Below are positions 3,005 to 42,016 of a stretch of 46,034 bases of DNA, piece by piece (position 1 is the stretch's first letter; every line of letters starts with the position of its first letter). The position numbers were made by a program, and so were the translations under genes. The DNA comes from Nannocystaceae bacterium (lineage in GTDB: Bacteria > Myxococcota_A > Polyangia > Nannocystales > Nannocystaceae): NCBI GenBank assembly GCA_046351635.1, contig JAXLYC010000019.1, positions 1 through 46,034 on the forward strand, in the 5' to 3' direction. The notes under the pieces were generated by a model. That model did no database searches. It was given only the letters and a program-made list of their open reading frames with translations, and was not told where the DNA came from.

Positions 3005-3013
3005 TCGAGTCGC

Positions 3014-3540
3014 GTGGGCTGGCGCGAGCTCGCCGAGCAGCTGCGGCCGTTCGTCGCCCGTCGTGTCGCCGCTGCGGCCGACGTCGACGACGTGTTGCAG
3101 GAGGTGTTCTTGCGCCTTCAGCGGGGCATCGACGGCCTGCGCGACGACCAACGCTTCGGGCCGTGGGTGTACCGCATCACGCGCAACGCCATCGTCGACC
3201 ACCAGCGATCGCTCGCGCGGCAGCCGGTGGTCGGCACCGACGACGGCGACGAGAGAGCGACTCGAACTCGACGATGGCGACGACGGCGTCGAGCAGGGGC
3301 TCGCGAGCTGCATCGCGCCGTTCGTGGCGATGCTGCCCTCGCCCTACCGCGAGGCGCTCACGCTCACCGAGCTCGAGGGCCTGACCCAGCGCGAGGCCGC
3401 ACAGATGCTGGGCGTGTCGCTGTCGGGCATGAAGTCGCGGGTGCAACGCGGCCGCGTGCAGCTGCGTCGCGCGCTCGAGGGCTGCTGCGACATCGCGGTC
3501 GACGCCCGCGGCCGCGTGATCGCCTACACGCCGCGCAGCG
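3014..3540 (+). CDS. ECF sigma-70 family factor (SigZ/CorE-like, C-terminal CC motif), apparently frameshifted near 3250-3260
   Basis: GTG at 3014, ten bases after the arsM stop. Sigma region 2 (ELAEQLRPFVARRV...DVDDVLQEVFLRL...FGPWVYRITRNAIVDHQRS) lies in one frame. Region 4 (PYREALTLTELEGLTQREAAQMLGVSLSGMKSRVQRGRVQLRRALEGCCD) lies in the frame of ORF 2676..4610. The switch is at the gagagagcga tract near 3251. No in-frame stop follows region 4. Confidence 0.65.
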
Positions 3541-3617
3541 ACGGCCGTCTGCCGGTCGGCGTGCAGACGCGGCAGTTTCTCCCGCGCGGGCGTTGCGACG
3601 GCCGCAGCGCCGCGCGG

Positions 3618-4610
3618 GTGCCCACGCGACTGGCCCACGAGCCCTCGGCGTGGCGCGCCGCCGACGTCGCCGACGCCGCGGCGTGGACCCACGAGCTCGG
3701 CGCGGCCGAACACGCCGAGCTGGTCGCCATCGTCGATCGCCTCGGCGAGCGTCCGCTCGCGGCGATCGACCGCGGCGCCCTGCCGGATCGCGGCGCGCTG
3801 GCCCAGGCCGCCCGCCGCTGGCGTGACGCGCTGCAGCACGGCCTGGGCTTCGTGCGCGTGCGCGGGCTCGACCTCGACGCGCTGACCGGCGACCGACTCG
3901 CGCGCGCGTTCGTGGTGCTGGGCCTGCACCTGGGCACGCCGGTGCCACAGAACCTCCGCGGCGAGCTGCTCACGGACGTGCGCGACACCGGGGCCGATCC
4001 GAGCCTGCCCAGCACGCGGCTGTACACCACCCGCGCCGAGCAGGACTTCCACACCGACGGCGCCGACATCATCGGGCTGGCGTGTCGCCGCGGCGCACGC
4101 ATCGGCGGCACCAGCCAGATCGCCAGCTCGCGCGCGATCGTGGCCGAGATCCAGCGCACGCAGCCCGAGCTGTACGCGGCGCTGTTCGACGACTTTCCCT
4201 GGCGCTACGAGGAACCGGGCGCGCCGCCGGTGGTGCTGACGCGGCCGATCTGCACCGCCCCGGCGGTCAGCGAACGCGGCGCGCGACTGAACACGTTCTT
4301 CATCCCCTGGTACATCCGCCGCTCGCAGGAGCTGGCCCAGGCGCCGCGGCTGACGCCGCTGCAGTCCGAGGCCATCGCGGCGATCGAGCGCCTCGCCCAC
4401 GATCCGCGCTTCCACCTCGACATGACGCTCGAACCCGGCGACGTGCAGTGGCTCGAGAACGCCGCGATCCTGCATCGGCGCACCGCGTACGAGGATCACG
4501 ACGCGGCCGATCGCAAGCGCCACCTGCTGCGGCTGTGGCTGAGCGCGCCGGACTTCGACGACGGCGACGCGCAGCTGCGCGCGGGCGTGACCCCGACCTC
4601 GTGCCGCTGA
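3618..4610 (+). CDS. TauD/TfdA-family Fe(II)/2-oxoglutarate-dependent dioxygenase (clavaminate-synthase-like); start uncertain
   Basis: Same frame as sigma region 4 with no stop between them. Translation shows TauD-like features (HTDGADIIGL, ...LDMTLEPGDVQWLENAAILHRRTAYEDH). The GTG at 3618 is the first plausible start. TGA at 4608-4610. Confidence 0.65.
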   Translation: MPTRLAHEPSAWRAADVADAAAWTHELGAAEHAELVAIVDRLGERPLAAIDRGALPDRGALAQAARRWRDALQHGLGFVRVRGLDLDALTGDRLARAFVVLGLHLGTPVPQNLRGELLTDVRDTGADPSLPSTRLYTTRAEQDFHTDGADIIGLACRRGARIGGTSQIASSRAIVAEIQRTQPELYAALFDDFPWRYEEPGAPPVVLTRPICTAPAVSERGARLNTFFIPWYIRRSQELAQAPRLTPLQSEAIAAIERLAHDPRFHLDMTLEPGDVQWLENAAILHRRTAYEDHDAADRKRHLLRLWLSAPDFDDGDAQLRAGVTPTSCR

Positions 4611-4622
4611 GCCCGGCGCGCG

Positions 4623-7600
4623 TCAGGGCTTGCCGTGCTTGCCGTGCTTGGCGTGCACGACCTCGACGCTCGCGTGCGCGGTGTGGCCGCGGCGCTCGGG
4701 CGCATACATGGCGTGGACGACCGCGGCGGGCATGCGGAAGCTGCCCGGCGTGGTCGCGCGCAGGAACACGGTGGCGACGTGCTCACCGGGCGACAGCGAG
4801 TCCGCAAACAGCAGCGCTCGGTCGCGCCACAGCTCGCGGTGGCTGACCCAGCCACCGCCGCGCGCCGCGAGCACCCGCGCGCGTGCGCCGGCGCCGAGGC
4901 CCTCGTCGACTGCCTCGAGCCCCGGCGGCAGCGGCAGCTCGATCGCGACGTAGCGCTGCGTGCGATCGACCGTGATGGTCACGTCGAGCGCGACCAGCTC
5001 GCCGGCGGTGACGCGCGAGACATCGCGCGCGTCCGCGGTCCGCAGCTCGCGGGCGATCGCGATGCCGTGGGCATCGGCGCTGCGGCCGGCGTCGCGCGGC
5101 GTCCACGACATGCCCACGCGCCAGTACATGCGGCCCTTGCCCTTGCGCTGCAACGTCACGCGCGGGGCCTCGCCCGCACCGGGCACGGCGATGTGCTGCC
5201 GCTCGTGTCCGGGCTTGGGCGTGCGACCGACCAACGAGATCTCGTGGCCGCCGCGCTCGCCGATCCACGCCGCCGCGGTCATCGCCGGCACCACGGTCTC
5301 GCGCGAACGCGCGTAGCGAGACAGCGACAGCAGGGCGTAGGCGCGCTCCTGCGTGTTGGCGAGCCGACCAGCGCCGCGCAGCTCGCCGAGCCCGCGCGCG
5401 AGCGGCTCGATGATGTCGTCGTCGGGCGCCGCCATCAGCAACGCCAGCAGCACCATCGCGTCGGTGCGCGCGCTGGTGTCGAAGTACTCGTCGTAGTACG
5501 TCGGACCCGGCCGCACGGTCGCGGTGCCCTCGCGCACGTCGACCACCTCGCGCAGCTCGGCCAGCAGGGTCTTGCCCGCCGCGCTGCCGGGCTCGAGCGC
5601 GTGGCTGGCCATCAGCAGCAGCGCCTTGGCGAAGATCGGCAGCTCGGCGCGGTGCTCGTGCAGCGCCGCGACCAGTGCGACCGGGCGATCGCCGGCGGCC
5701 ACGAGCGCCTGCGCGGTCATGGCCGCGACCACTGGATCGACGCCGAGGCGATCCCACACCGCCGCCGGGGTCGTGCCCTCGGTCGGTTGCGCGAGCTCGA
5801 CGCCGATGCGCGCGCGCAGATCATTGCGCATGCCCTCGGTCAGCGATTCCGGCACCGCGTGACCCTCGGCGCGCAGCTGCTCGAGCACCCACAGCGCATA
5901 GGCGGTGCCCCACACGTGGACATGGCTCGCGCCGGGCCAGTAGCCCAGGCCGCCGCCGCCGACCTGCATCGCACGCAGCCGCGCGATGCCGGCCGCGACG
6001 TGCTCGTCGACGTCGATGTCGAGGAAGCCCTGGTGCGACAGCCCGCGAAGCGCCACCAGCGGCAAGAGCCCGCTCGAGGTCTGCTCGACGCAGCCGTAGG
6101 GATACGTCGCCAGATCACGCGCCATCGGCTCGAGCCCGGCAAGCATGGTCCCGGCGAGCTCGACGTCGACGTCGAGCCCACTGCGGCCCAGATCGCGCGG
6201 CCGCGCCAACGCGACCGCGAAGGCGCCGTCGTCCTCGATCGACCCGTAGGCCGCCGCGAACTGTCGCAGCTCCTTGGGCTCGGCGATCTCGAACGTCGCG
6301 CGCACGGCATCCTGCAGCTTCGGTGCGCCCTCGCCGGCGGCCAAGCTCGCGCGCAGCTCGAGCTCGACCTCGCCGGCCGACTTCGCCTGCAGCACGAACG
6401 GCAGCTTGGCCTGTCCGCCCGCGACCATCGAGACGCCCAGCGCCGGCGGCTCGACCAGCTCGACGTGCTGCTTGCCGCGCACGATCGACAGCGACAGCTC
6501 GGCCTCGCCATCGGGCCCGCCGAGGTTCTGCAACATCGCCGCGAGCTCGGCGCGATCGCCCGGTCGCAGGATCCGTGGCGTCACCGCGCGCACGACCAAG
6601 GGCGCGGTCACACGCACGCGCGCGTCGCCGTGACCGAAGCGCGCCAGGCCCGGACCGCTGGGGCCGTCGGCCGACGCGATCGCGGTGACGCGGAAGGTCG
6701 TGAGGTTGTCGGGCATGGTGCCGCGCACCGTCGCGTTGCCCTTGGCATCGATCGCGGCGTCGCCGATGAAGATCGGCGTGCCCTCGAACTTCTGCCGCGC
6801 GGTCGGGGCCGAGACGCTGCCGCCGCGCACGCCCAGCCCGCCGCTGCCGTGGCCGGCCCCGCTGCCGCCGGTGCCGAACCCGCCCCACGCCAGCGAGAAC
6901 GGATCCTCGCGGGTCTGGTACGGCCGCAGCACCTCGGAGTAGGTCTCGAGGAAGCGCGTGGGCACGTACCGCGGCGCCGCGAAGGTCGCGGTGAGCAAGA
7001 TCGAGGATCACCCAGCGCGACAGGGAGGTCGGCACCTCGTCGACCGCCCACACCGCCACGCGTCCGGACGCAGGCTGGCCGTCAGGCCCCTGCACGTGCA
7101 CGGCGATCGGCAGCTCGGCGCCGGCATTCGTCACCTCGGGCACGTCGAGTTCGACCGTGAGCCGGCAGGTGTCGGACGCGACGAACACGTTGGCCGACGC
7201 GGTGTAGATGCTGCGGCAGCGCGGCGTCGGCGCTGCGACCGACCACGAACGCGTGAAGCTCGACATGTGGATCCATGCGTCGGTGACGGGTAGCTCGATG
7301 GTGGCTTCGCCCTTGACCAGCTCGAACGGCACGGTGCGGCGCAGGCCCAGGTGCGAAACGCGAGCACGCCGTGGGCATCGATGGTCGGACCATGGGCCTT
7401 CACGACCAGGGTCTGACCCACCGCGGGCGCCTGCGGCGGCAGCTCCAGCTCCAACCACCGCAGCTCGCGGGGCTCGGGGCGGACCACGGGCCGCGGCTCG
7501 TCGATCCAGAACGATTGCTGCCACACCAGCGGCGTCTCGTCGATCGTCGCGGTGAGGTCCGCACGGTAGCGACCCGGCGCCAGCTTGCCGCTGTCGCAGC

Positions 7601-10332
7601 GCGCATCGTCGCCGCTGGTGGTGGTCTCACCGCGGCAACGCTTGACCCGCTCGGGCACGTCGACCATGACGTCGTCGGGGCCGCGCTTGGATCGCATGCG
7701 CGACAGCTCGAGCGTGTAGGCCTGCACCCGTCGCTGCTTGCCGTCGCGATCGACCGCGCGCAGGGTCCAGCTGCTGCCGTCGCTACGCTCGGTCGCCTTG
7801 ATCGCGAGATACTGCGAGGGATACACGAACCACGTCGCGGTCGCGCCGACCTCCTCGAAGCTGGCGTCTTGCACCGCGACGTCGATGCTGCAGGTAGTCG
7901 CCCGCGCAGCAGCCGGTCGACACCGCGTACGCACCGTGCCGTCGCCCTCGATCACCGCCTCGCCCGTGAGCGTGCGCGACCACGCCTCGTCCGGATCGGA
8001 CACCGCGGAGCCATCGACCAGTCGTCGTCGAGCCCCGGCAGGCGCACGCGACGCTGGCTGCAGATGTTGGCGCGGGCGCCGATGCCGTGCACGTGGCCAC
8101 CGAAGTAGAAGCTCGCGTGGGTCACGATCTCGGCCGGCTCGCCGCGCACGCGCGCGTCCGCCAGCGCCGCGGCGCGGACCTCGAACTGCGGCGGCCTCGT
8201 CGCGCAGCTCGAAGCGGGCTGAAGCGATGGCCGTCGATGACGGCGACGGCGTCGGCCATGCCCAGCGACGCCGTCGGCAGCAGGCGCAGGCGACCCCAGT
8301 ACTTGCCGTGGGCCGTGATCGCGACGTTGCGCTGCGCGACCGTCGCCGCGGCCGTCCGAGCTGCAGCACGACCTTGGTACCGGGCTTGGGCCGCGCGAAG
8401 GCCGTGCTCGGTGGTCGGGGTGCTGATCGCGGCCCAGCCCACCATCGAGACCGTCTCGCCCGGCAGGTAGATCGCGCGCTCGGTCGCGACGTCGCTGCGC
8501 AGCTCGTCGTGGGACACCGCCTCGGTCGGGGTCGCCAGCGCGACCAGGGTGCGGTCGTCGCCCTTGCGCACCAGCACCGACGCGCCCGCGGGTAGCACGC
8601 CCTCGCGCGGCAGCTGGGCGAAGCCGTCGTCGCCGGTGCGCAGTCGCTGCGTGCGCTTGCCGGCGGCGTCGATCACCTCGATCTGCGCGCTGGCGACCGG
8701 CGTCAGGTCCTCGAGCCGTCGCACCTGCAAGCGCGAGGTGCCCGGCGAAAGCCACGCGGCCAGGCCCAGATCGGTGACCTGGAACAGCCCGCGCGTGGGC
8801 GTGGGGCCGGGGCGGCCGCGGGCCTCGTCCATCACCGTGCCGGGCACGATCTCGACGAACAGCGGCCGACTCTTGCCGCCGGCGAGCGACGCGACGTCGA
8901 GTGCGATCGAGGACCACGCGAAGCGTCCGCTGGGTCCGAGATCGAGCTTGCGCTCGAGCGCATGTTCGGGGTGCTTGGGGAACGGCACCGAGGCGAGATC
9001 GCCGTGCTGCATCGCGACCCACTCGCTGTCGCTGGGCACCGCCGCGCGCAGGGTCGCGTCGTGCAGCCACCGCGACTCGAGCCCGACGGTGGTCGCGAGG
9101 CCGGGCCGCAGGGTGCCGCGGCTGCCGACCAGCTCGATCGACGGCGGTGGTGACACGAACACGACCTCTCGCGGTCGCTCGCCCGACAAGGCCTGGCCCA
9201 CGCGATCGCGCAAGTTGGCGGGGAACGTCACGCGGTAGCTCCGCAGCTCGAACTCGCCGTAGAGCGTGACCGCGCTGTCGCCCCAGGCCTCGCGGCGGAA
9301 GTGCTTGGGCCGCGGGCTGAGATCGATGCGCTCGAGGTCCTTCTCGGCGAACGGTGCGTCGAACTGCAGCGTCACGCCCATCGGGCCGCAACCGTCGCCG
9401 TGATCCTCCATGCACTGCACGCGCGCGCGCGGCCCCTCGGAGACCAGGAATCGCGCGACCGCGGGCTTGCCCAGGGCGCCGGCGCCTGCGGGTGCGAAGC
9501 GCTCGTCGAGCACGACCTCGACCTCGTGGCCCGCGGGCCAGCGGGTCGCGGGGTGCACGTGCAGGCGCCCGAGCTCGGGCGGATCGAGATCGACCGGCAG
9601 CGGGTGGCGCTGGTGTTCGCCGAGCACCCGCACCGGCACCGGCACCGCGGTCTTCGGATCGGCGCCGCGCTTCCACGCCCGCGCGCGCACGTGACCGCGC
9701 AGCGCCGCGGCGGTCGTGGGCAGCTCGACGCGCACGTCGACCGCGGCCTTGTGGTGCACCGTCGGCAGCGTCGACGCGGTGACCTCGCCGTCGTCGGCGG
9801 TGTCGTCGAGCGGTTGTCCCCACTGCCACGACGAGACCGGCTCGAGCTCGGCCCACGGCGCGCGGGTCTGCAGCGCCCACGACTCGTCGATGGTGATGAC
9901 CGTGCCGTCGTCCCGTTGCAGCTGCCCCTTCGCGCGCACGCGGTAGCTGCGACCCAGCGCCAGGGGTTCGCTGGGCACGAACCACGCGCGGTACGGATCG
10001 ACCCACACCGTCGCGCCCTCGACATGCGGTTCGAGCTCGAATCGCAGCGCATCCACCTGCGGACGCATCGGCCGGCTGAAGTGCACGTACGGCTGCGCCG
10101 ACTCCGACACCGGCGTGCCCGCGCGGGGTCCCACCGCTGCGACCTCGGCCGGCGCGCCGACCAGCTCCGGATCGCGCTTGGGTGCGTGACCGGCGGGATC
10201 GACCGTCGCGATCACCTCCGCTGCGGGCGGCCCCGCCGGCGCCTCGGGCACCAGCGCCCGCGAGGGGCCGTGGCACGCCGCCAGGGTCGTGAGGGCGAGG
10301 ACACCGTGGAGCTTGCGACGCGCGAAAGGCAT
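4623..10332 (-). pseudogene. Alpha-2-macroglobulin family lipoprotein gene disrupted by at least four frame changes
   Basis: N-terminus MPFARRKLHGVLALTTLAACHG (lipobox) starts at the ATG at 10332. The thioester motif YPYGCVEQTSS lies in the 3' part. Protein-like sequence moves between frames: the frame of ORF 8122..10473 down to about 8200; the frame of 7952..10567 to about 8040; the frame of 7131..8369 to about 7370; the frame of 6115..7524 to about 6990; then the frame of 4623..6998 to the stop. Confidence 0.75.
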
Positions 10333-11483: not shown

Positions 11484-12101
11484 ATGGCAGCCGAGTCCGC
11501 CTTCGTCCATCGCCGCGCCGAACGTCGCGCGCGGCTTGTTCTCCACGCCTCACAGGTCCTGACGCTGGCGCTGCTGCCGGCGCTCGCGTGGACCGCAACC
11601 GTACCGCACGCGGACTTCCAGGCTGGCGATCCGGTGCGGGCGAGCGAGATCAACGAGAACTTCGCCGCGCTCGCCGATGCGATCACCGCGCTCGAAGCGG
11701 CCCCGCGAGGCGCGGTGCTGAGCGACGCAGCGGACTTCGATCTCACCGTCGCCGAGGGCTCCCAGCCGGTGCCGGGCCTCGCGCTCGACATCGACAGCGG
11801 CGCCGGCCCGGTGAAGCTCGAGCTCACCGCGGCAGAAGGCGGCGGGATGGTCCGGCTCGTCGGCGCAGGCTATGCGTGGATCGTCTTCCGGCGCAGCCCC
11901 GACGGCAGCAACTGGACGAACTTGACCTACCTCTCGCTCAGCGGCGAGGACCTCGGCGTACCGCCGGGCACGTTCACGTTCTTCGACGAGCCCGGACCCG
12001 GCACCTGGCACTACGACGTGCACGCCGCCGTGTTCCAGAGCGCGACGCTCGAGCTCCACTCGGTCCGCTTCGTCGGTCAGCCGATCGGAGGTGCAGGATG
12101 A
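11484..12101 (+). CDS. Hypothetical secreted protein (signal peptide)
   Basis: ATG at 11484. The N-terminal region is signal-like (LVLHASQVLTLALLPALAWTATVP). Composition is non-degenerate. The stop overlaps the next start (ATGA at 12098-12101). Confidence 0.5.
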   Translation: MAAESAFVHRRAERRARLVLHASQVLTLALLPALAWTATVPHADFQAGDPVRASEINENFAALADAITALEAAPRGAVLSDAADFDLTVAEGSQPVPGLALDIDSGAGPVKLELTAAEGGGMVRLVGAGYAWIVFRRSPDGSNWTNLTYLSLSGEDLGVPPGTFTFFDEPGPGTWHYDVHAAVFQSATLELHSVRFVGQPIGGAG

Positions 12102-12376
12102 GCCGCGCACGCGCGTTCGCCTGCCTCGGCCTGCTCGTCGGCGCCTGCTACCAGCGGCCCGAAGCCCACGGCCCGGGTGCGGGCACCGAATCCGAATCAT
12201 CCAGCGGCAGCAGCACCGACGGTGACGTCACCTCGACATCCGCCGATGGCAGCGGATCGAGCGAGGCGTCGGGGACCGATTCCGACGCGTCGTCCACCGC
12301 GGATGGATCGAGCGACGGCGGTTGCGTCCCGGCGAGCTACGACGACGTGGTGTGGGACGCGGCTTGCTTTCGGTAG
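12098..12376 (+). CDS. Small Ser/Asp/Gly-rich lipoprotein
   Basis: MSRARAFACLGLLVGACYQ is a lipoprotein signal. A low-complexity acidic Ser/Gly/Asp-rich tail follows. Translationally coupled to the upstream gene. Confidence 0.5.
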   Translation: MSRARAFACLGLLVGACYQRPEAHGPGAGTESESSSGSSTDGDVTSTSADGSGSSEASGTDSDASSTADGSSDGGCVPASYDDVVWDAACFR

Positions 12377-12479
12377 CGGGGGCGCGCCATCGCGATTTGG
12401 CGACATCGACTGAGTCACGCGGTTTCTCGGCTCACGATCCAGTGGCCGCGAGGTGAGCGCGGCTGACCGCCCCTTGCTG

Positions 12480-12735
12480 TTCCTGTCCGTGGTCGACGTG
12501 GTCGACGCCAGGCCGGGGCACCCGCGGGGCCGCTCCGGGCGCTCCGGGCCATCGGGCTGCTAGCGTCGGCAGCGTCGGCAACATCGCCCACGACGAACGC
12601 CTGGTTCAGGGCCCCGATGACAAGTCGCAGCCGTTAGATGTCTTGGGCTGCTGCTCGCCCACGTCCTGGCCCCCGTCCGGTGTCCGGTCGTCATGGGTCG
12701 TCGGTCGTCGTCGGTCGTCGTCGATCTGTCCCGAG
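12480..12735. repeat. Cluster of five short (7-12 bp) head-to-tail tandem duplications in non-coding DNA
   Basis: Read directly: gtggtcgac-gtggtcgac, gctccgggc-gctccgggc, agcgtcggc-agcgtcggc, gtccggt-gtccggt, and (ggtcgtcgtc) three times, all within about 250 bp. Confidence 0.5.
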
Positions 12736-13981
12736 CAACCTCTGCGGTTCGCTCTGCTGCCCAACATATCAGGCATTCAGCGGCGGGAGCATCAGGCGTA
12801 GCTCGATGAGCCGTCCCGTTACAACGGCTTGTTGGGCGGGCCCCCCGAAGACGTGGCGTCATATCCGGCGCGGTTGGACTTCAAAGCTGCGGCTTTTAGA
12901 TTTTCAGCCTGGGACCATCTGCCGGTACACGGACCATGTAGCAGAAACAGCTCTTCTCAAGTAGAGTGGGGGTCTTGAGGCCGCTCGGTCAATGGGCTCA
13001 AGTACGTCGATACCGGAACTCCACAAGCCTGTGCAGATAGAACACAGCGTACTTCTGTTTTTGTAGTGGCGAGCACCGCCTTCGTAGCGAGCGTCTCCGT
13101 TTCCGTGATCGCCGTCCCGTCGTCTGCTGTATGCGAAATCGATCCCGCGTCTGCCTTTCAGCATGGCGCCGTGTTCCACCGTCGTCTTTCGCGATGCGGT
13201 CCATCTGTGGTGGCGGCGAATGATCTCGCTGCCGACGAGGCGGTCCCAGTCGGCGAGCGGCTCTCCCCCTCGCGCGGCGCGCTTTCCGTCACAATGTCGA
13301 GATTGTAGTAGCGTGACTGCTTCGCGAATCTTGTGAGAAGCATGACCATGTTCTTCACGATTTCGTCATCAGGCGTGGCGTCTGCTCCAAGTCCGCGGAC
13401 CTCGTTTATCTCTCGCCTTATTCAGCAGGTTGTCGACATCGTGGCCCAGATCGCGGAGATATCTGTTGTCAGGGGTCTTCCATGCGTTCGATAGTAGTCG
13501 AGAACGACGATCAGCTTAAGAGAATGCGTTCAACCCGATCGTGAACGCGAATGACCGAGCGAAAAAATGCGCCTTTGTCGCCGAACGTATAGCGACGAAT
13601 GGAGTCGAACCCGTAGCAATATTGCTTGCGAAAGGATAGAATCGCCTCGAGTAGGAGGGGCCTCGATACGCTTCCATTAGCGCCTCCTCTGGGTTTCGTT
13701 TCGAGAACCGGCTCAGGCGCGCGTTATCGATTATTCGCACCAGACGTCGCACGCTTCATCCTTCCGGAGGTTGAGTAGCTTTGCGGATGTGAATCCCCAG
13801 CGCGCTCCCTCGACAAACACGTGCTGTCCCCCTCTTCCCAGCCAAGGCACCAGGTTCTCGCCTGGAACATATCCAGTGATCACCGAGGCCTCTCATCCGC
13901 GATACCGTGTTCAATCGGGTACTCGCTTGGGGACGCGTCTGTGGCCGGGCCGCGTGCAGCAGAGCCGCGCCGATTCTCCAG

Positions 13982-14446
13982 TCAACGGGGATAATAAGTT
14001 ACTTCGTGCTCCGCGCAAGGAGTGAAAAATGCGAGGCGGTCGGGGTTTGCGACAGCGTTTGGACTTCGTCGCAAGTTCTCGTAGAAGTCGGCACAGCTTT
14101 CGAAGCTGCTGCGACAGGAATTCGAGACCGGGTGTCGTCGAGAACAAAGACGCAATAGGCTGTTGGCCGCGGTGAAGCGAAAAGTGCTCGCTATGTGCGG
14201 TGTAGCGAGCTGCACACTGAGAGCGTGTTCGGAGCAGGTGTCCGCGAGTAGTTGCCCGTTCTCTCGCGCCATCCAGCAGGACCACTGGGGGCGTGCTTCA
14301 ACATCGGGCTGCGTCGCTCTTGCGGCGCCTTCCGAAGTTGCCATCGCGCCTGCGCGCTCGACTCGTAGGGACGCCTCGTCAGGTGCACCGCCACACGAAG
14401 CGAAGAGTCCTGATTCCACCGATGGCAACGACGCGCAGGGGCCCAT
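13982..14446 (-). CDS. Longest ORF inside the low-GC island (154 aa), hypothetical; may be a relic
   Basis: The composition is not Arg-rich (...RENGQLLADTCSEHALSVQLATPHIASTFRFTAANSLLRLCSRRHPVSNSCRSSFESCADFYENLRR...), but I recognise no motif. Confidence 0.2.
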   Translation of the reverse strand: MGPCASLPSVESGLFASCGGAPDEASLRVERAGAMATSEGAARATQPDVEARPQWSCWMARENGQLLADTCSEHALSVQLATPHIASTFRFTAANSLLRLCSRRHPVSNSCRSSFESCADFYENLRRSPNAVANPDRLAFFTPCAEHEVTYYPR

Positions 14447-15084
14447 GAGCAGGCTTGAGCCCAGCGCTGCTTGCCGCGTTCGATGTCGTCGCGGAGGTCA
14501 TCTTCACGCTCGCGCCTCTCAGCAGAACTCCAGGGGCGCTCCAGTGATCGCGGATACGGAGGCGACAAAGGCGACGGATCTGCTCGTCGTCGAGCTTGGA
14601 CAAGATGGGAAAATCGGTGGCGTTCCCGGCAGGCCCAGCGCCTGGGACCTCGACCCGAACGACGTTGAGGGGTAGCGCCCGTCTTCGACGCCCACGCCCA
14701 GTTCTTCGCGGGGTCCGTCTTGTGCTGCACCCACGCGCGCCAGGCCGTCAGGCCCTTGGCCTCACTCGACGTACTTCTGCCCATTGTGTCCGTGCTGAAT
14801 CGGTATCCACCGCATCAGGCTGCGCCTCGCGCCCATCGTAATTCGGCCAGACCCGCCCAGGCGCGCTTCTTCAGCAACGACCCAGCCTTTCGCGACCGTG
14901 CCAACACCCCTCACCACGATTCCACCGAGATCCCGGCCTTGCACCCCAAGCCCCCCGACTTTCCCCCGACCGCGTTATCCTGCAAGCTCGCTGCGTTTGT
15001 CCTTTCGGGCAACACTGCGAGCCGAGTTCGCGGGCTCGAGGCGTTCGGCGAATCGGCAGGTGTCCGGGCATGCGTGGCCGGCGA

Positions 15085-15215
15085 ACGGCTGGGAGTCGCG
15101 GTATCGCCCATGTTCGCACGCCTGCCAGCGCGCGGTTGAGCACGTGGGTGTAGACCATCGTGGTGTTCACGTCGCGCGTCTCCATCAGGCGCGCCCATGC
15201 GCCGGCGAAGCGCTC
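15085..15215 (-). pseudogene. 3'-terminal remnant of a tyrosine recombinase gene with the integron-integrase-type C-terminal box (catalytic Tyr)
   Basis: The minus-strand translation ERFAGAWARLMETRDVNTTMVYTHVLNRALAGVRTWAIPRLPAV matches the IntI-family C-terminus (LLGHSDVSTTMIYTHVLxxGGxGVRSPLDxLP). Only about 45 residues are present. Upstream of it, the minus strand is occupied by the cupin gene in another frame. Confidence 0.55.
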
Positions 15216-15244
15216 GCCTTCGCCCGCTCCCACCCCCGCAGCCG

Positions 15245-15730
15245 TCAGCGCGACTCGGGAAACCCGCTGCCATCCTTGCGGGTGAACAGCGCGCGTCCGT
15301 CGGGCCCCTTGCGGTACGCGAGGTCGACGTCGGGATACTCCGCGCCGTCCTCGAGGTCGCGGTTGCTGATCTCGAGGTAGCGCGCGTCCCGATCGCTGCG
15401 GTTGATCAGCTGATGCCCGTCGCGCGAGCCCGCGGCGAAGCCCGCACACATGCCCGCGGTCAGGATCTGCTCGCCGGCGTCGGTCACGAGCACGACCTCG
15501 CCCTCGAGCACGTAGACCAGCTCGTCCTCGCGCGTGTGCCAGTGACGCATCGCCGACTCCTTGCCCGGCGGCAGCGTGGTCAGGTTCACGCCGATCTTGG
15601 TCAGGCCCAGCGCGTCGCCCAGCGCCCGCTTCTCGCGCGGCAGCACGCGCGAACGATAGGGCTCGGGATAACCAGAGCCGGTGCGAGGGGACAGCGTCGC
15701 GGGGTCGAGTGCGGGGAGCAGCAGTGCCAT
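15245..15730 (-). CDS. Cupin-domain protein
   Basis: MALLLPALDP... with a cupin-2 core (GVNLTTLPPGKESAMRHWHTREDELVYVLEGEVVLVTDAGEQILTAGMCAGFAAG). ATG at 15730 and TGA at 15245-15247, both confirmed. Confidence 0.75.
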   Translation of the reverse strand: MALLLPALDPATLSPRTGSGYPEPYRSRVLPREKRALGDALGLTKIGVNLTTLPPGKESAMRHWHTREDELVYVLEGEVVLVTDAGEQILTAGMCAGFAAGSRDGHQLINRSDRDARYLEISNRDLEDGAEYPDVDLAYRKGPDGRALFTRKDGSGFPESR

Positions 15731-31543: not shown

Positions 31544-31554
31544 GCGCGACGACG

Positions 31555-32817
31555 TCAGCGCGTCAGCAACCCCACGGTGTCGACCACCGACGGCCGGTTG
31601 AACCACTCGCGCCGCAGCCGTGCGAACGCGCGGTGGGCCACCAGCACCACGACGATGTCGGCGGTGCGCAGGGCTTCCTCCGCGCCCACCAGCGGCACGC
31701 CCGGGATCGGCGAGTTCTGCAGGTGGGGCTCGACCGCGACGACGTCGCCGAAGTCCGCGGCGGCGAGCTCGCGCACGACCTCGATCGCCGGGCTCTCGCG
31801 CACGTCGTCGATGTCGGGTTTGTAGCTCAGGCCCAGGCACGCGATCTTCGGCCGCTTGAAGCGCTCCGCGACCGTGCGGACCTGCGCGACCACGCGGTGC
31901 GGTCGCTGATCGTTGACGCGGCGTGCGGCGGCGATGAGCGGGGTGTGCTCGGGCGCGACCGCGATGATGAACCACGGGTCGACCGCGATGCAGTGTCCAC
32001 CCACGCCGGGACCCGGGCGCAGGATGTTCACGCGCGGGTGACGGTTGGCCAGCTTGATGACCTCCCACACGTCGAGGTCGAGCGCGTCGCACACGTTCGA
32101 CAGCTCGTTGGCGAAGGCGATGTTCACGTCGCGGAACGCGTTCTCCGACAGCTTGACCAGCTCCGCCGCGTCGGCGGTGCAGCGCAGCACCTCGCCGGCG
32201 ACGAAGCGCTCGTAGAACGCGGCCGCGACCTCGGTGCAGGCGGGGGTCACGCCGCCGACGACGCGGTCGTTCTCGACCACCTCGCGGATGACGGCCCCGG
32301 GCAACACCCGTTCCGGTGCGTGCGCCACATAGACGTCCTGGCCGGCCACGAGCCCGGCCTGGGCGAGGATCCCCGCGACCATCGTGCGGGTGGTCCCCGG
32401 CGGGCTGGTCGACTCGAGCACGACGAGGTTGCCCGGTCGCAGCACCGGCACCAGCGCGCGCGTCGCCGACTCGACGTAGCTCAGATCCGGCGTGTGCCCC
32501 GGTCCGAAGGGCGTGGGCACGCAGATCAGGAACGCGTCCGCGGGCTGCGGCGTCGCGAACGCGCGCAGCCGCCCCGCGCTGACCGAGGCCCGGACCAGCG
32601 CGTCGAGCTCGGGCTCGACGATGTGGATCTTCCCCTCGTTGATGGTCGCGACCACGTCGTTCCGTGTGTCGGTGCCACAAATTTTCATCTGCCCGCGGGT
32701 CGCGAGCACCGCGGCGGTCGGCAACCCCACGTATCCGAGACCGATCACACAGACATCCCATGCGCTCGATGCGGTCGGGTCTGCAGCTGCGCGTGAAGTG
32801 GGCGATGACGTGTTCAT
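31555..32817 (-). CDS. UDP-N-acetyl-D-mannosamine / UDP-N-acetylglucosamine 6-dehydrogenase (WecC/WbpA family)
   Basis: Near-colinear match to WecC: VCVIGLGYVGLPTAAVLATRG, GKIHIVEPELD, CVPTPF, RVNILRPGPGVGGHCIAVDPWFI, KPDIDDVRESPA. ATG at 32817 (the second start of the ORF). Confidence 0.85.
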   Translation of the reverse strand: MNTSSPTSRAAADPTASSAWDVCVIGLGYVGLPTAAVLATRGQMKICGTDTRNDVVATINEGKIHIVEPELDALVRASVSAGRLRAFATPQPADAFLICVPTPFGPGHTPDLSYVESATRALVPVLRPGNLVVLESTSPPGTTRTMVAGILAQAGLVAGQDVYVAHAPERVLPGAVIREVVENDRVVGGVTPACTEVAAAFYERFVAGEVLRCTADAAELVKLSENAFRDVNIAFANELSNVCDALDLDVWEVIKLANRHPRVNILRPGPGVGGHCIAVDPWFIIAVAPEHTPLIAAARRVNDQRPHRVVAQVRTVAERFKRPKIACLGLSYKPDIDDVRESPAIEVVRELAAADFGDVVAVEPHLQNSPIPGVPLVGAEEALRTADIVVVLVAHRAFARLRREWFNRPSVVDTVGLLTR

Positions 32818-32958
32818 CTGCAAGACTCCATGTCATGCTACGGGCAAAGTCGTGATCGCGTCCATGGTGGGTAGGTTCGATTCCTCGCCGCGGTGGGTCC
32901 GGCAGCGCGCCGCGACTGTCATCGCCCGCGCGCTCGCGACAAGGATCGGGGTCTGGCC

Positions 32959-34473
32959 GTGAACGCATCCCTGGGCACGCTGTGGCTCGGCGCGCTGGTC
33001 TCGTTCGCGCTCGTCGCGGGCGCGATGCCGCTGGTGCTGCGGGCGTGGCGGTCGCTCGGTCGTCGCGACGACGAGGTCAGCCTGCGCAAGGTCCACACCG
33101 GCCAGATCCCGCGCGCCGGCGGCCTGGTCATCCTGTTCGGCTTCGGCGTGATGCTGGTCGCCGGCCTCGCCGGCGTCAGCTCGCTGTCCGCGACCCACGA
33201 GCTGTTCTCGGTCTCGCCGCTGACCGGCGCGCTGGTCGGCGCGCTCGTGGTCGGACTCACCGGCGCGTGGGATGATCTCATCGGCCTGCGGCCGCGGACC
33301 AAGCTCGCGATGCAGCTGGTCGGCGCGACGCTCGCGGTGCTCTACGGCCTGCACTGGCCCGCGCTCGAGTTGCTCGTGGGCTGGGAGTACAACTGGCTCG
33401 CGACGCTGCTGACCATCGGCTTTCTGGTCGCGTCGGTGAACGCGGTCAACATGATGGACGGGCTCGACGGGCTCGCCGCGGGCATCTGCCTGGTGGGCTT
33501 CGGCACCGTGGTCGCGGCGATCTTCGCCGGCCCGACCCTGGTCCCGGGCACGCTCGCGGTCGGCTGGGCCGCGGCCTGTGCCCTGGGTGCCACCGGCGGC
33601 TTCCTGCTGCACAACCGCCACCCCGCGCGCGTGTTCATGGGCGACGCGGGCAGCTACTTCCTGGGCTTCCTGCTGCCGGCGCTGCTGGTCCAGGTGGGCC
33701 CGGTGCGCTGGCGCGTGCCGGAGATCCAGCTGTCGATCGCGATCCTGCCGCTGGCGGTGCCGATGTTCGACATGACGCTCGCGATCGTGCGCCGGACCCT
33801 GCGGGGCCAGCCGATCTTCAGCGGCGACTCCGACCACGTGCACCACCGGCTGATGGCCGCGGGCTTCACCCACGCGCGCGCGGTGACCGTGCTGTGGCTG
33901 TCGGCGGCGATGTTCGGATCGCTCGCCTACCTCAACGTCATCGGCATCGGTGGATGGTGGACGCTGCTGGGCACCCTGGTCGCGATGGTGCTGGCCGCGG
34001 TGCTGCTGGGCTACCACCGCATGCTGGCGCAGCTGCCCGCGTTCACCGGCGAGCGCTTCCTGGGCTGGCGGGATCGTCGCCGCGAGGTGATGGAACTGCT
34101 CGACACGCTCGAGCACGTGCGACTGTCGGGCAACGACCGCGGCGAGGTCCGCTGGCGCCGGGTCGCGCCCGACCTCGCGCTGGTGCTGGGACGCCTGGGC
34201 ATCCCCGCGTTCCAGATCCGCCGCTTCGACGACGTCGTGGTCGGCAGCGGCGACGCGCGCGATGCCTGGGCGTGGCTGAGCCTGCCGGTGCCGGGCGAGG
34301 ACGGGGCCGAGCTGCGACTGGCGCTGGCGGTGCGGCTGCCCGAGCTGCAGCAGGAGCGCCTGATGCTGATCGAGCGCGCCGTGCTGGCGGTCGCCGGCGA
34401 CGGCGGTGCCGCGGCGCGTCAGCTGACGGTCGTGCGCGGCGGCGGCGAGCGTCCCTCGGCCGCCGCGCCCTGA
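32959..34473 (+). CDS. UDP-HexNAc:undecaprenyl-phosphate HexNAc-1-phosphate transferase (WecA/MraY GT4 family) with a C-terminal extension of about 170 aa
   Basis: GTG at 32959. RKVHTGQIPRAGGLVILFGFGV aligns with WecA. Has the NAVNMMDGLDGLAAG and VFMGDAGSYFLG motifs. Protein-like sequence continues about 170 aa past the last transmembrane helix. Divergent from the dehydrogenase gene across a 141 bp intergenic region. Confidence 0.8.
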   Translation: MNASLGTLWLGALVSFALVAGAMPLVLRAWRSLGRRDDEVSLRKVHTGQIPRAGGLVILFGFGVMLVAGLAGVSSLSATHELFSVSPLTGALVGALVVGLTGAWDDLIGLRPRTKLAMQLVGATLAVLYGLHWPALELLVGWEYNWLATLLTIGFLVASVNAVNMMDGLDGLAAGICLVGFGTVVAAIFAGPTLVPGTLAVGWAAACALGATGGFLLHNRHPARVFMGDAGSYFLGFLLPALLVQVGPVRWRVPEIQLSIAILPLAVPMFDMTLAIVRRTLRGQPIFSGDSDHVHHRLMAAGFTHARAVTVLWLSAAMFGSLAYLNVIGIGGWWTLLGTLVAMVLAAVLLGYHRMLAQLPAFTGERFLGWRDRRREVMELLDTLEHVRLSGNDRGEVRWRRVAPDLALVLGRLGIPAFQIRRFDDVVVGSGDARDAWAWLSLPVPGEDGAELRLALAVRLPELQQERLMLIERAVLAVAGDGGAAARQLTVVRGGGERPSAAAP

Positions 34474-34480
34474 GCCGGCA

Positions 34481-36070
34481 TCACTGCGACCGCGGCGGCG
34501 CGGTGCGAGGCGGCCGCGCGGCCGCGGCGTTGCGGCTCGCGACCACGCGCGGCATCGGTCCGGTCACGTGGACGTCGAAGTCGTCGCCCTTGCGCGTGAC
34601 CACCGCGTGGGTCGGCGCGCGCGCCGGTGTCAGGCCCAGCAGCGGCGCAAGCGACTCGAGCCCGCGCAGCTGCGACAGCATCTCGCCCTCGATCGCGAAC
34701 GCGGCCGAAAGCAGATCCTCGGTGGTCTTGCTGCCCGGGGTCGCGCCCTTGGTCTGCTCGAGCCACTCGCCCAGGGCCTCGTTGGCCGAGGGCCCGACCG
34801 CGACCACGACCGCGCCGGCGTGCTCGCTGCCGGCGAACGCGATGCGTAGCGCACCCTCGTCGTCGATGAGCGGCGCGAGCTCCGGCGGCAGCAGCTTGCG
34901 TGCGTTGTCGACCGCGATCACGTGGATCGACACGCCCGCCGCGGTCGAGCGGTTGCGCTTGAACCGCAGCTTGGGCACCGACACGCCGAAGGTGCGCGCG
35001 AGATCGAGGTTGCCCAGCACCGCGTCGATGAGGCTGCCGACCGCGCCGCTGGCCTTCTTGGGATCGTCGGCGCCCAGCGCCAGCAACACGTGGCGCTTGG
35101 GGCCCAGGCCCACCAGCACGCGGCCGTTCCAGCTGCGCAGCACCGCGTTGTAGCGCTTGAGCATGTCCTCGAGCACGCCCTTGACCAGGAAGTTCTGCTT
35201 GTCGACCGTGCGCGTGGCCTGGCCGATGAGATCCTTCACCACGGTCTGGTACTTGGCGTAGCGCGAGCTCGCGGCCGCGACGATCGACGGCGATGCCAGC
35301 AGCCCCGTGAGCGCGCCCTCGGTGAAGTCGGACAGCTGCGCGATGGGGCCGTCGCCGTCGGCGGTGATGCGGAAGTCGGTCACGTCCTCGCCGACCAGGC
35401 CGATGCGCTGGAACGGGAACGAGGGCACGCCCTTGCGCACCTCGGCGCCGTCGAGCGTCAGATACAGCCCGTGCTTGCCGTAGGCGCGGCCGAGCTCGCG
35501 CGCGGTCGCGAGGCCGCGCTCGTCGCTCGCGAGCGCGAGCGTGGCGTTGGCGGTGTCGAGCCACGCGAGCTTGGGTGGCGGCGGCGTCATCTCGATGGCC
35601 TCGCGCGGCAGCTCGACCGCGCCGAACTTGCCCACCGCCTTCTTGCCGCGCAGCAGTGCCTGGACCTCGGCCAACCGCACGCGCTCGATCGGCACCTGCA
35701 CCACCAGCTGACCTTCGACCAGCGCCGCGCTCCACGGCCGCGCCAGATCGAGGTCGTCGACCAGCTGACGCTCGAACGAAAGACCGACGGCGCCGAGCAG
35801 CTCGCGCAGCACCGCGCGGGGATCGTTGCCCAGGCCCAACGTCTGGCCCAACGCCGCCAGCGCAGGCGCAGGCGCGGCGACGTGGCTCGCGAACGCCGGC
35901 TTGGCCGCCAGGCTGTAGGGCCGCGGCATCGACGGGGGCGGCGGCGCCTCGCGCTGCCGACCGTGCACACCGCCGGTGCCCGGGGTCGTCGCGCCGGGCT
36001 TGGGATCGTGCTTGCACGCCACCGGGGCGAGCAGGAGGAGCGAGAGCAGCAACCGCGGCGAGCGTCGCAT
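34481..36070 (-). CDS. Hypothetical lipoprotein
   Basis: MRRSPRLLLSLLLLAPVACKHD lipobox. 529 aa with balanced composition. ATG at 36070 confirmed. Confidence 0.6.
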   Translation of the reverse strand: MRRSPRLLLSLLLLAPVACKHDPKPGATTPGTGGVHGRQREAPPPPSMPRPYSLAAKPAFASHVAAPAPALAALGQTLGLGNDPRAVLRELLGAVGLSFERQLVDDLDLARPWSAALVEGQLVVQVPIERVRLAEVQALLRGKKAVGKFGAVELPREAIEMTPPPPKLAWLDTANATLALASDERGLATARELGRAYGKHGLYLTLDGAEVRKGVPSFPFQRIGLVGEDVTDFRITADGDGPIAQLSDFTEGALTGLLASPSIVAAASSRYAKYQTVVKDLIGQATRTVDKQNFLVKGVLEDMLKRYNAVLRSWNGRVLVGLGPKRHVLLALGADDPKKASGAVGSLIDAVLGNLDLARTFGVSVPKLRFKRNRSTAAGVSIHVIAVDNARKLLPPELAPLIDDEGALRIAFAGSEHAGAVVVAVGPSANEALGEWLEQTKGATPGSKTTEDLLSAAFAIEGEMLSQLRGLESLAPLLGLTPARAPTHAVVTRKGDDFDVHVTGPMPRVVASRNAAAARPPRTAPPRSQ

Positions 36071-36219
36071 CGTGTTGGACCCTACCAGGAAGACCACGCG
36101 CGGGCACGCGCGCGCATGGGGCACTGACGCCGCGCGACAGCGGCGGCTTCAGCGTCGCGGTGGCCGACGTGGCGCGGCACACCGGTAGCCCGCCAGCTTT
36201 GCGCCAGCCTGCAGCGCGC

Positions 36220-37068
36220 TCACGGTCGCGGTGTCGGATCGAGCACGCAGCGGAAACCGATCGCGACGTGACGCACCACCGGCGGCACCAAGCGTCGTGC
36301 CGGCGCGCGCGCAGCCCAGTGTGGATCGCTCCAGGCCGCGCCCTTCACGACCGCTTGGCCGTGCTCGCCGCCGGCGGTCCACTCCGCGACGTTGCCTGCG
36401 AGGTCGAGCACACCCTCGGGGCTCGCGGCGCGCGGCCGTGCACCCACGGGTTGCACGTCGCCCATGCCGTGCTCGCGCGTGTTCGCGTGCTCGGGCACGA
36501 AGCGATCGCCCCAGGGGTAGTCGCGACCATCGACGCCCCGCGCGGCGCGTTCCCACTGCGCCTCGCTCGGCAGCGAACCGAAGCCGCCGCGCTGCTCACC
36601 CCACCACGCGCAGTAGGCCTCGGCCTCGACGCGGCTGACCAGCACCGCGGGCTCGTGGACGCGTGCGGGCTGCGGGCGGCCGTGCTGCCAGGCGTAGCGC
36701 GCGGGCGGCTGCGCCGCGGGCACGCTGCACTGTTGCCGGGCCGCCAGCGCGGGGTCGATCCACGGCTCGGGCGCGCCGGTGCTCCACACGAAGCGCGCGT
36801 ACTCGTCCTGCGTGACCGGGTGGATCATGATGTGGAACGCACCGAGGCGCAGGTGGTGCTCGGCCAGCTCCTCGCGCACGGCCGCGACCGCGCCGCGGGG
36901 ATCGCTGTCGCTGCGAGCGGCCTGCTCGATCGCGCGCGAGCGCGAGTCGAGGCTGGAGCCCATCGTGAAGCTGCCCGCGTCGATCGTCACCGTGCCGGCG
37001 GTGTCGAGGTTGCCGTGGCCGCAGCCGATCGCGATCGCGACGGCGCCGAGCGATGCGAGCGCGCGCAT
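36220..37068 (-). CDS. Formylglycine-generating enzyme (SUMF1/FGE) family lipoprotein
   Basis: MRALASLGAVAIAIGCGHG lipobox. FTMGS, AEAYCAWWG, LPSEAQWERAARG, YPWGD, GNVAEW and a C-terminal RHVAIGFRC. Confidence 0.75.
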   Translation of the reverse strand: MRALASLGAVAIAIGCGHGNLDTAGTVTIDAGSFTMGSSLDSRSRAIEQAARSDSDPRGAVAAVREELAEHHLRLGAFHIMIHPVTQDEYARFVWSTGAPEPWIDPALAARQQCSVPAAQPPARYAWQHGRPQPARVHEPAVLVSRVEAEAYCAWWGEQRGGFGSLPSEAQWERAARGVDGRDYPWGDRFVPEHANTREHGMGDVQPVGARPRAASPEGVLDLAGNVAEWTAGGEHGQAVVKGAAWSDPHWAARAPARRLVPPVVRHVAIGFRCVLDPTPRP

Positions 37069-37154
37069 GACCGCGTCATCGGCCGCGACCGCGCGCGGCT
37101 GCAGCGCGGACGGAAGCGGGCCACCGACGCGGCGCGGCGGCCCGCGAGCGGCGC

Positions 37155-37901
37155 TCAGCTGCGCCGCGCGGCGGCGGCCTCGAGCGCGGGGCGGAACTTC
37201 GCGATCGCGTCGCCGATCACGGGCGCGCCGTGGGCCGGCAGTACGTGGGTGAACGGCAGCCGCAACACCGCGAGCAGATCTTCGGCCGGCGGCTTGCACT
37301 GCGACAGCCACCCCGGCCCGACGTTGTGCGGCTTGATGAAGCCGAACCTGCGCATCATCAGCGCACCCAACCAGCTGAAGAACTCGTCGCGTTGGGCCCA
37401 GTTCTGCAGCGCATCTCCGGCGATGACGACGCCGTCGTGACGCTCGAGCAAGAGCAGCGCCTCGGGCGGCGTCGAGCGGAACATGTGCACGCTCGCACCA
37501 CGCAGCGGCAGCTTCGTGCTGGCGTCGAAGCGCTGGTCGGGCTCGAAGTACGGCGGCGCCTTGGGCGAAAAGCCGGGCATGTACGGCGCGTCGACCGGCG
37601 CCCATACCCGCGCGCCGTAGTGCTGCTTGTAGAAGGGATCATCGGCGCCGTGGTTGCCCGCGAGGCGGATGACGTCGGTGACCTTGCCCAGGCGATCGAG
37701 CGCGGCCAGGCCGTCGGGATCGAGCCGCACGCTGTTGACCAGCACCAGCCGCTCGCCCTCGCGCACGATCGTCATCGCGCGGCTGAAGCGGACCGGCAGC
37801 GGCCCCGGCATCGCCGCGGTGCCGGTCACGAACCACAGATCGGGCAGGACCTCGGTCAGGACACCGTGCGGACGTGCGGGCGGGTGCGGGCGTGGCTTCA
37901 C
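37155..37901 (-). CDS. Hypothetical protein (possible metallo-hydrolase fold); start uncertain
   Basis: 248-aa ORF with a GTG at 37901 and non-degenerate composition (VIRLAGNHGADDPFYKQHYGARVWAPVD...). Confidence 0.45.
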   Translation of the reverse strand: MKPRPHPPARPHGVLTEVLPDLWFVTGTAAMPGPLPVRFSRAMTIVREGERLVLVNSVRLDPDGLAALDRLGKVTDVIRLAGNHGADDPFYKQHYGARVWAPVDAPYMPGFSPKAPPYFEPDQRFDASTKLPLRGASVHMFRSTPPEALLLLERHDGVVIAGDALQNWAQRDEFFSWLGALMMRRFGFIKPHNVGPGWLSQCKPPAEDLLAVLRLPFTHVLPAHGAPVIGDAIAKFRPALEAAAARRS

Positions 37902-37985
37902 CCCGCTGGCGTAGCAAGCGTCGGCGCCGAGGGCCAGATGACAGATCGGCCATTGTCGGGGGTGATTTCCGCCAGCGGACGGCGC

Positions 37986-39161
37986 TCAGCCGGCGGTGCG
38001 CCAGCGCTGCGCGACGATGGTGCTGGCCTTGCGGTCGGGATCGTCGCCGGGCCCCGCGAGCAGCCACGCGGTCTCGCCGTCGATCCACAGCGGCCGCAAC
38101 CACTGCAGCCCCGGCGGCGGCGCGATGGCGTGCTGCTCGCCGTCCGAGACGGCCGTGATCACGGCGCGCTCGGCATCGTCGATCGTGAGCACGCGACCGT
38201 CGTCCGCGACCATGCCCCAGCCGCCGTGGCCGATCCGATCCGGCAGCGGGCCGACCGCGCCGCGGCGCCCCCTCGCCCACCGGCGCGAGCCACAACGTCG
38301 CGTCGCGGTACCACGCGGCCGAATCGAGCTGGGCATCGACCCGCACGATCGCGCCGGCGCTGCGATCGATCGCGACCTCGGCGAGCTCGCCGAGCGGCCG
38401 CATGCAGGGCGAGCCGCGTGATGTCGCGCGCACAGCGACGTGCGGCGATCGAGCGCCTGCAGCAGCGCGCCGCGGGGCAGCGCGCGCGGCCGCGTGGCAC
38501 CGGCGGCGATGGGCACCAGCCCGCCGTCGGGATCGACCGCGACCACGCCCGACGCCTCGAGCTCGACCCCAGCTCTGGCCGTCGCCGACCGCGAGGACCT
38601 GCGTCGCCAGCTCCGGCAGCGACACCCGCTCGAGCGCGCCGTCGCCCCACGGTCGCCGCAACAGCACGTCCTGGGTCGCACCAGCGGCCGCGCGATCGCC
38701 GCGACGCCGCGATCACCGGTCGCGACGCGCACGGCACAGCCGTCGGGCGCGGCCGGGTCGGCGCGCAGACCGCCGCACCGCGCAGCGCTGACCACGTGGG
38801 TCCAGCCCTGCAGCGCGCTGGCTCGAGTCGCCCTCGTGGCGCATGTATGTCGTAGCGGCGCGCCTGCCGGTACGACGCGTCGGCCCCGTGCACCGACAAG
38901 GTGTTGCGCACGTCGCGCGCTCGACCACGTCGCAGGCTGCTCGCAGCCGTCGCCGCAGCCGATCCACGACGGCGCGCAAGCTCGCTCGGGCTCGGCCACG
39001 ACCGTGGGCTTCGCCGCAGCCGCTGCGGGCACGCGAGTTCAGGCCCGGCCCGCCCGCACCGGCGCGCCGCCAGGCACGGACTCGGGTTGCGGCGTCGCGC
39101 GCCACGTCGGCGCGCTCGACCACGCCGCGGGTGCGGTGCACGCCGCCAACAGCACCCACAT
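37986..39161 (-). pseudogene. Lipoprotein gene (signal MWVLLAAC) fragmented across all three frames, with at least four frame changes
   Basis: The ATG at 39161 gives MWVLLAACTAPAAW.... Protein-like segments lie in the frames of ORF 37986..39032 (AGVELEASGVVAVDPDGGLVPIAAGATRPRALP; GPLPDRIGHGGWGMVADDGRVLTIDDAERAVITAVSDGEQHAIAPPPGLQWLRPLWIDGETAWLLAG...*) and ORF 37639..38667 (LLRRPWGDGALERVSLPELATQVLAVGDGQ; RPLGELAEVAIDRSAGAIVRVDAQLDSAAWYRDATLWLAPVGEGA), in alternation. Confidence 0.4.
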
Positions 39162-39176
39162 GATCGCGAGCCCGCG

Positions 39177-41931: not shown

Positions 41932-42016
41932 CGCGGGCTCCTGGTCGGGCCGGCGCGATGCCGGCTCCACCGGACTGACCCGCTGGGGTTCGATCCGTCT
42001 CGCGGAAAAGCGCGCG

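Follow-up and report, generated by a model that had tools for sequence, protein, structure and literature searches.

Bacterial alpha-2-macroglobulins (A2M) of the YfhM/ECAM type, described from Escherichia coli (PDB 4RTD, 5A42, 4ZIQ) and Salmonella (4U48), are lipoproteins with a CxEQ thioester in which a chain of MG domains is combined with a bait-region domain, an A2M domain, a thioester-domain region and bMG10, and enterobacterial yfhM typically has a pbpC partner. A longer family of ~1,900-aa A2M-like lipoproteins is found in Nannocystaceae, where it is widespread, and in other Myxococcota (P0031, P0033–P0043; L083, L001, L005). Here we analyze a gene that shares the features of the YfhM/ECAM proteins and is collinear over its full length with the ~1,900-aa family, located on the minus strand of a 46,034-nt stretch of a Nannocystaceae metagenome-assembled genome (MAG; GCA_046351635.1, contig JAXLYC010000019.1, positions 1–46,034; hereafter the window; G+C 72%). 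Its reading frame is broken by 13 insertions or deletions (indels) in the deposited sequence. These indels are confined to 1.4 kb, are accompanied by few extra substitutions and are flanked by coding sequence under purifying selection, a combination that probably reflects a local fault in the consensus sequence and not the decay of the gene.

Frame breaks confined to 1.4 kb of an A2M gene

The first-pass annotation of the window had named the gene an alpha-2-macroglobulin thioester lipoprotein, and lipobox, GCVEQ motif, Pfam and PDB matches all agreed with this identity (Table 1). Pfam assigned bMG3, MG2 (weak), A2M_BRD, A2M and bMG10 to the protein repaired as described below, with the bait-region model A2M_BRD complete at repaired residues 959–1098 (E = 4.5 × 10−9) and seen in no unrepaired piece; the Pfam thioester-domain model PF07678 had no match in the window copy. 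The C-terminal 791 aa matched the PDB entries 4U48 (Salmonella A2M) and 4RTD/5A42 (E. coli YfhM) at E ~1 × 10−21, and the thioester motif columns Y-P-Y-G-C-x-E-Q were invariant in the homologue alignment. Judged from its sequence, the gene is a YfhM/ECAM-type bacterial A2M lipoprotein of ~1,905 aa for which protease trapping by bait cleavage and thioester attack is predicted. It is an ordinary gene of its kind and holds nothing novel in itself.

Translation of the deposited sequence from position 10332 ends at 8124, such that no continuous full-length open reading frame (ORF) exists. The source MAG carries the two gene ends, on a contig of 114,419 bp, as separate ordinary proteins, not as one frameshifted gene: 8125–10332(−) is annotated as hypothetical protein U0168_17190 (P0032; 736 aa, identical translation), and 4626–6998(−) as MFO0634578.1 (P0001), an 'alpha-2-macroglobulin family protein' of 791 aa with a TTG start. 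The indel-dense patch between them corresponds to the part of the protein from MG2 to the bait-region domain.

Frame changes near 8200, 8040, 7370 and 6990 had been proposed at first reading, and all four were recovered by coding statistics and homology (at 8200, 8020–8040, 7355–7370 and 6995–7000). In a frame plot of G+C at third codon positions (GC3), the minus-strand coding frame switched near 8200, 8030, 7370 and 7050, while the codon-usage Viterbi path through the whole window changed frame at 8400, 8355, 8218, 8189, 8019, 7930/7885, 7353 and 6999. Searches by tblastn with the homologues P0010 and P0007 were collinear with the gene and tracked the same frame changes.

The breaks were also placed using a protein-to-DNA aligner that allows frameshifts, written for this analysis. 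Because two intact-versus-intact controls with distant homologues (L001 and L005; 30–40% identity) returned many false frameshift calls, only alignments to close orthologues (P0027, P0002, P0031, P0029 and P0049) were trusted. The partial orthologue P0027 (50–65% identity) required 10 frame changes, which persisted up to a per-shift penalty of 25, and P0002, which comes from the same relative, required zero frameshifts across the C-terminal 2 kb even with the penalty at its lowest. P0031, an intact full-length orthologue of 1,910 aa (identity 79% in the N-terminal part, residues 1–641, and 85% in the C-terminal part), gave the same 10 junctions and, at the lowest penalty, three more at 7922–7890, with the first 645 and last 791–792 codons aligning without any shift.

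DNA–DNA alignment of the window to the P0031 locus (L083, from the Logan assembly of SRR1027651; 82.6% nucleotide identity over 6.3 kb) showed 13 gaps with lengths not divisible by three, all within 8399–6995, and one extra 3-nt gap inside the same interval, whereas all 6 gaps outside the patch were multiples of three. Alignment to intact orthologues, recommended in the first-pass annotation, has thus located 13 indels where that annotation counted 'at least four' disruptions; it was right that the frame is broken and too low in its count, since several of the breaks compensate one another in sets without creating a stop codon and are missed by eye. The clustering of all 13 frame-breaking gaps in 1,405 of 5,710 nt is far beyond chance (scan approximation, P ~6 × 10−7), as is evident also from the division of frame-breaking and in-frame gaps between patch and flanks (Fisher P = 1.8 × 10−4). 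The uneven spread of indels noticed earlier is therefore real, but it is not a property of the A2M gene alone, as the window contains two further frame-broken genes. Ten single-base edits sufficed to give one 1,901-aa ORF, and a 13-edit repair guided by the orthologue DNA gave 1,909 aa with zero internal stops.

Table 1 Coordinates of the A2M gene, its frame breaks and the other frame-broken genes in the window
Feature	Position	Strand	Basis
Whole alpha-2-macroglobulin-type lipoprotein gene	4623..10332	−	~1,901–1,909 codons in one ORF after indel correction
Predicted lipoprotein signal peptide MPFARRKLHGVLALTTLAAC, lipobox LAAC, Cys20	10273..10332	−	Translation; sequence pattern judged by eye
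N-terminal reading frame, intact, ~645 codons	8400..10332	−	Only gaps in multiples of three in DNA alignment; codon likelihood scan clean
Indel-dense patch, 13 frame-breaking gaps and one 3-nt gap relative to intact orthologue	6995..8399	−	DNA and protein alignments
Stop codon closing the 736-aa N-terminal ORF	8122..8124	−	Translation
C-terminal reading frame, intact, 791 aa	4623..6998	−	P0031 and P0002 alignments without frameshift
Thioester motif GCVEQ inside YPYGCVEQTSS	6081..6095	−	Translation
Frame-breaking gaps (size in nt)	8399 (+1); 8357, 8342, 8220, 8199 (−2 each); 8002 (−1); 7926 (−5)		Alignment to L083
Frame-breaking gaps, continued	7901, 7893 (−2 each); 7357, 7272 (−1 each); 7208 (−2); 6995 (+4)		Alignment to L083
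Second frame-broken gene, 395-aa lipoprotein	37998..39176	−	P0029 alignment; L081 DNA alignment
Third frame-broken gene, ECF sigma–TauD fusion	3005..4610	+	Pfam frames; P0049 alignment

That the source record lists the flanking ORFs as two separate proteins would suit a fission of the gene into N- and C-terminal genes with a decaying linker between them, or else a frame maintained by programmed recoding. Programmed frameshifting was ruled out by the number of shifts, their mixed sign and the lack of a shared slippery motif. Fission is contradicted by the C-terminal ORF, which starts at a TTG exactly on the final junction and lacks a signal peptide, such that its thioester domain would remain in the cytoplasm. 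Moreover, every orthologue recovered (P0031, P0033–P0043, L001 and L005) is one uninterrupted ORF, with intact lengths of 1,891–1,921 aa, and we find neither fission nor recoding credible as an account of the locus.

Constraint on the gene and origin of the indels

Selection on the gene was assessed from its flanks, its codon usage and its substitutions. At the indel density of the patch, the two flanks (1.9 kb and 2.4 kb) would be expected to hold ~40 frame-breaking indels, and they hold none (P ~5 × 10−18). In a relative-rate test with five outgroup orthologues (P0033–P0038), the flank distances of the window and of P0031 differed by only −1 to +1.5 percentage points, while in the patch the window was 2.5–5 points more diverged in amino acids from the outgroups than P0031, part of which results from imprecise placement of the repairs. 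GC3 was 0.912 in the patch when each segment was read in its own frame, compared with 0.921 and 0.936 in the flanks. Nucleotide mismatch to L083 was ~21% in the patch versus ~18.4% in the N-terminal flank, an excess of ~2–2.5% that corresponds to ~30 mismatches per 13 indels, while intergenic DNA in the window carried 11.4 mismatches per indel relative to a close syntenic relative (L081; GCA_019694555.1). The undiminished constraint on the flanks, together with the lack of rate acceleration, indicates that the A2M gene was constrained until essentially the present.

The first-pass annotation had offered pseudogenisation and an error-prone assembly as alternatives, and these results favor the latter. 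Large myxobacterial genomes do contain frame-broken genes, and a lipoprotein gene elsewhere in the window resembles neutral DNA, which would be in line with an A2M gene that was inactivated some time ago and has since decayed neutrally. However, neutral decay would spread indels over all 5.7 kb, whereas the flanks contain gaps in multiples of three only and show neither accelerated rates relative to the outgroups nor any loss of their strong third-position bias. Natural decay that left 13 indels should also have left far more substitutions than the patch holds. Flanks without indels, relative rates, codon bias and the ratio of indels to substitutions therefore exclude ordinary pseudogenisation for practical purposes, and we consider it very improbable. 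Once ordinary decay is set aside, the origin of the indels is either technical or a burst without biological precedent.

We infer that the 13 indels probably represent a local patch of the MAG contig where the consensus was left unpolished or had low coverage. The gene would then be functional to this day, and the indels would be absent from the DNA of the organism. Such a patch might arise if the stretch rested on very few or unpolished long reads, if a long-read gap fill joined accurate short-read contigs, or if polishing failed where strains differ. Single-molecule read error is marked by many indels and few substitutions, and a consensus error is favored because indels in the patch are many, substitutions are few and codon bias is preserved. 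The origin of the window in a Nannocystaceae MAG in NCBI also counts in its favor, as does the presence of frame-breaking indels in two further genes within the 46 kb.

Several observations weigh against a consensus error. No independent assembly of this strain turned up: exact look-ups of both annotated fragments were negative, scans of JGI metagenome contigs, one by degenerate DNA pattern and one guided by protein, were negative too, and two protein searches returned nothing above 75–85% identity besides the ORFs of the window itself. The window is otherwise very clean, which means that the error process must have been strongly local, and there were no notable repeats, tandem repeats or GC anomalies in or around the patch that would account for a local failure. 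Further, 7 of the 13 indels are 2-nt deletions, often with GT or TG missing, and few lie in long homopolymers, a spectrum unlike typical natural indels and equally unlike homopolymer miscalls. Finally, the frame-broken lipoprotein gene may, to judge from its sequence, be a true old pseudogene, which would weaken the argument from damage elsewhere in the window. A scan of genome contigs returned relatives at ≤40% identity only, among the matches listed.

The 2-nt-deletion-rich spectrum is the one unusual residue of the A2M case. The missing dinucleotide was GT or TG in 4–5 of these deletions, for example where the orthologue has GACGTGGTC and the window GACGGTC. A motif-specific basecalling or polishing error might produce such a spectrum.

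The sharp limits of the patch and its perfectly constrained flanks would also be expected if the patch were DNA of a co-occurring strain or recombination donor with a long-dead allele, joined to the gene by an assembler chimera or by homologous recombination, and MAG contigs can be strain mosaics. A long-dead allele predicts ~11 substitutions per indel, ~6–10% extra nucleotide divergence and an eroded third-position bias. What we observed was only ~2–2.5% extra mismatch, 2.5–5 points of amino-acid divergence and a GC3 of 0.91, and we therefore regard a long-dead allele, whether joined on by the assembler or by recombination, as quite unlikely.

It is also possible, though unlikely, that the organism does carry the indels and acquired them very recently, in a single local mutational catastrophe (for example, error-prone repair synthesis over ~1.4 kb) that killed a functional gene. 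The indels are present in the deposited sequence, deletions prevail among them (11 of 13), and sizes of 2–5 nt are atypical of homopolymer miscalls; the state of the flanks and the relative-rate test would fit an event after which there has not yet been time for more decay. Such an event must, however, also have struck at least one further gene within the same 46 kb, and we know of no bacterial process that gives ~1% small indels over 1.4 kb almost without substitutions. Were the indels real, an unknown localized mutational process would be implied, and nothing in the data requires one.

Frame damage and gene content elsewhere in the window

A 14-codon sliding likelihood scan applied to all genes showed clean frames except in the A2M patch and at 37987–38677, with ~38 kb of other coding sequence in the 46-kb window clean. 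This includes the other long genes that the first-pass annotation had named as uninterrupted. A frame excursion in the FGE-sulfatase gene at 36220–37068 (log-likelihood ratio 11.9) was rejected as noise, as the gene reads intact and shows only gaps in multiples of three, if any, against its orthologue. Frame damage on the contig is patchy.

The second frame-broken gene encodes a lipoprotein, and its orthologue P0029 (GCA_019694555.1; 75% identity), which is intact and identical in an independent Logan assembly, aligns to it only across 6–11 frame changes, depending on the penalty. In the syntenic DNA alignment with L081 (14.5 kb), 15 frame-breaking gaps fell in this gene, whereas the other genes had no such internal gaps and a single 1-nt gap was found at 39208, at the boundary of the protease gene. 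The lipoprotein gene is close to intergenic DNA in its mismatch (16.4% vs. 17.7% intergenic) and similar to it in indel density and codon-position pattern, with a third-position fraction of 0.42, compared with 0.57–0.87 in its neighbors. Either it is another error patch, or it is a genuine pseudogene of long standing. If a near-simultaneous burst of mostly 2-nt deletions over ~1.4 kb truly inactivated A2M in the population, it perhaps struck this nearby gene too; we consider this version of events distinctly improbable, and if true it would point to an undescribed patch-wise process of indel hypermutation acting on genes for secreted lipoproteins.

The surrounding region, 31553–46034, is syntenic with L081 (JAIBBS010000017.1 of the same assembly), with neighboring proteins 76–98% identical and all but one small protein at least 85% identical. 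Gene order is conserved through a trypsin-like protease, the lipoprotein, the FGE-sulfatase, a WecA-type glycosyltransferase, a UDP-glucose dehydrogenase and an ABC transporter. The L081 contig stops short of the A2M locus, and the protein database contains no A2M orthologue from that MAG.

The third frame-broken gene combines an extracytoplasmic function (ECF) sigma factor, with regions 2 and 4 and a CC-motif tail, and a TauD/TfdA-type dioxygenase domain joined to it in frame. Pfam placed Sigma70_r2 in frame +1 and both Sigma70_r4_2 and TauD in frame +2, and the intact 538-aa homologue P0049 aligned with exactly one frameshift, at ~3250–3263. This frameshift sits in an acidic linker beside a (GA)n run. 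The existence of an intact homologue indicates that the sigma–TauD fusion is natural, and a dioxygenase-like domain at the C-terminus of a sigma factor may be worth an examination of its own.

The sigma–TauD gene is the convergent downstream neighbor of the A2M gene, and the upstream neighbor encodes a 265-aa protein without a Pfam match. Absence of the pbpC partner, suggested as a check in the first-pass annotation, was confirmed for the window: no transglycosylase or transpeptidase domain was found among the scanned ORFs of the 46 kb or among the annotated syntenic genes of L081. Only the A2M gene, an HZS_alpha/PD40 protein and a trypsin-like protease exceed 700 aa among the ORFs of the window, and tRNA and Rfam scans gave no matches anywhere in it. 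A stretch of ~3 kb at 12085–15114 has lower G+C (57–64%) and no convincing coding signal, and ends in a minus-strand fragment at ~15115–15252 that is like the C-terminus of a tyrosine or integron-type recombinase (...TTMVYTHVLNR...). This stretch may be a decayed mobile element.

Comparison with known systems

Comparative work on Myxococcota would be misled if the 736-aa and 791-aa fragments were counted as genes or pseudogenes. Even without reads, three tests can distinguish an error patch from a true pseudogene, namely the division of gaps into those that do and do not come in multiples of three relative to a close intact orthologue, the relative rate of the flanks, and the number of indels per substitution set against that in intergenic DNA.

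Relative to YfhM/ECAM, the window protein is ~250 residues longer (~1,905 vs. ~1,650 aa), its gene has no pbpC/PBP1c gene nearby, and its frame is broken 13 times in this assembly. Length does not set it apart from the ~1,900-aa Myxococcota lipoproteins, with which it shares the same Pfam architecture and, in the case of P0031, 75–85% identity, and at the L083 locus the downstream TauD-type gene is conserved as in the window; the other members of this family are single ORFs, whereas the window copy is broken.

Long-read error rates bring frameshifts and premature stops that pseudogenize genes (PMC12007338). The A2M patch differs from the indel errors of long-read and hybrid assemblies in that the presumed errors occur in patches and not contig-wide, and in that 2-nt deletions, not single-base homopolymer errors, dominate. 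It resembles them in being dominated by indels, in splitting a conserved gene into adjacent annotated ORFs and in leaving the coding statistics intact.

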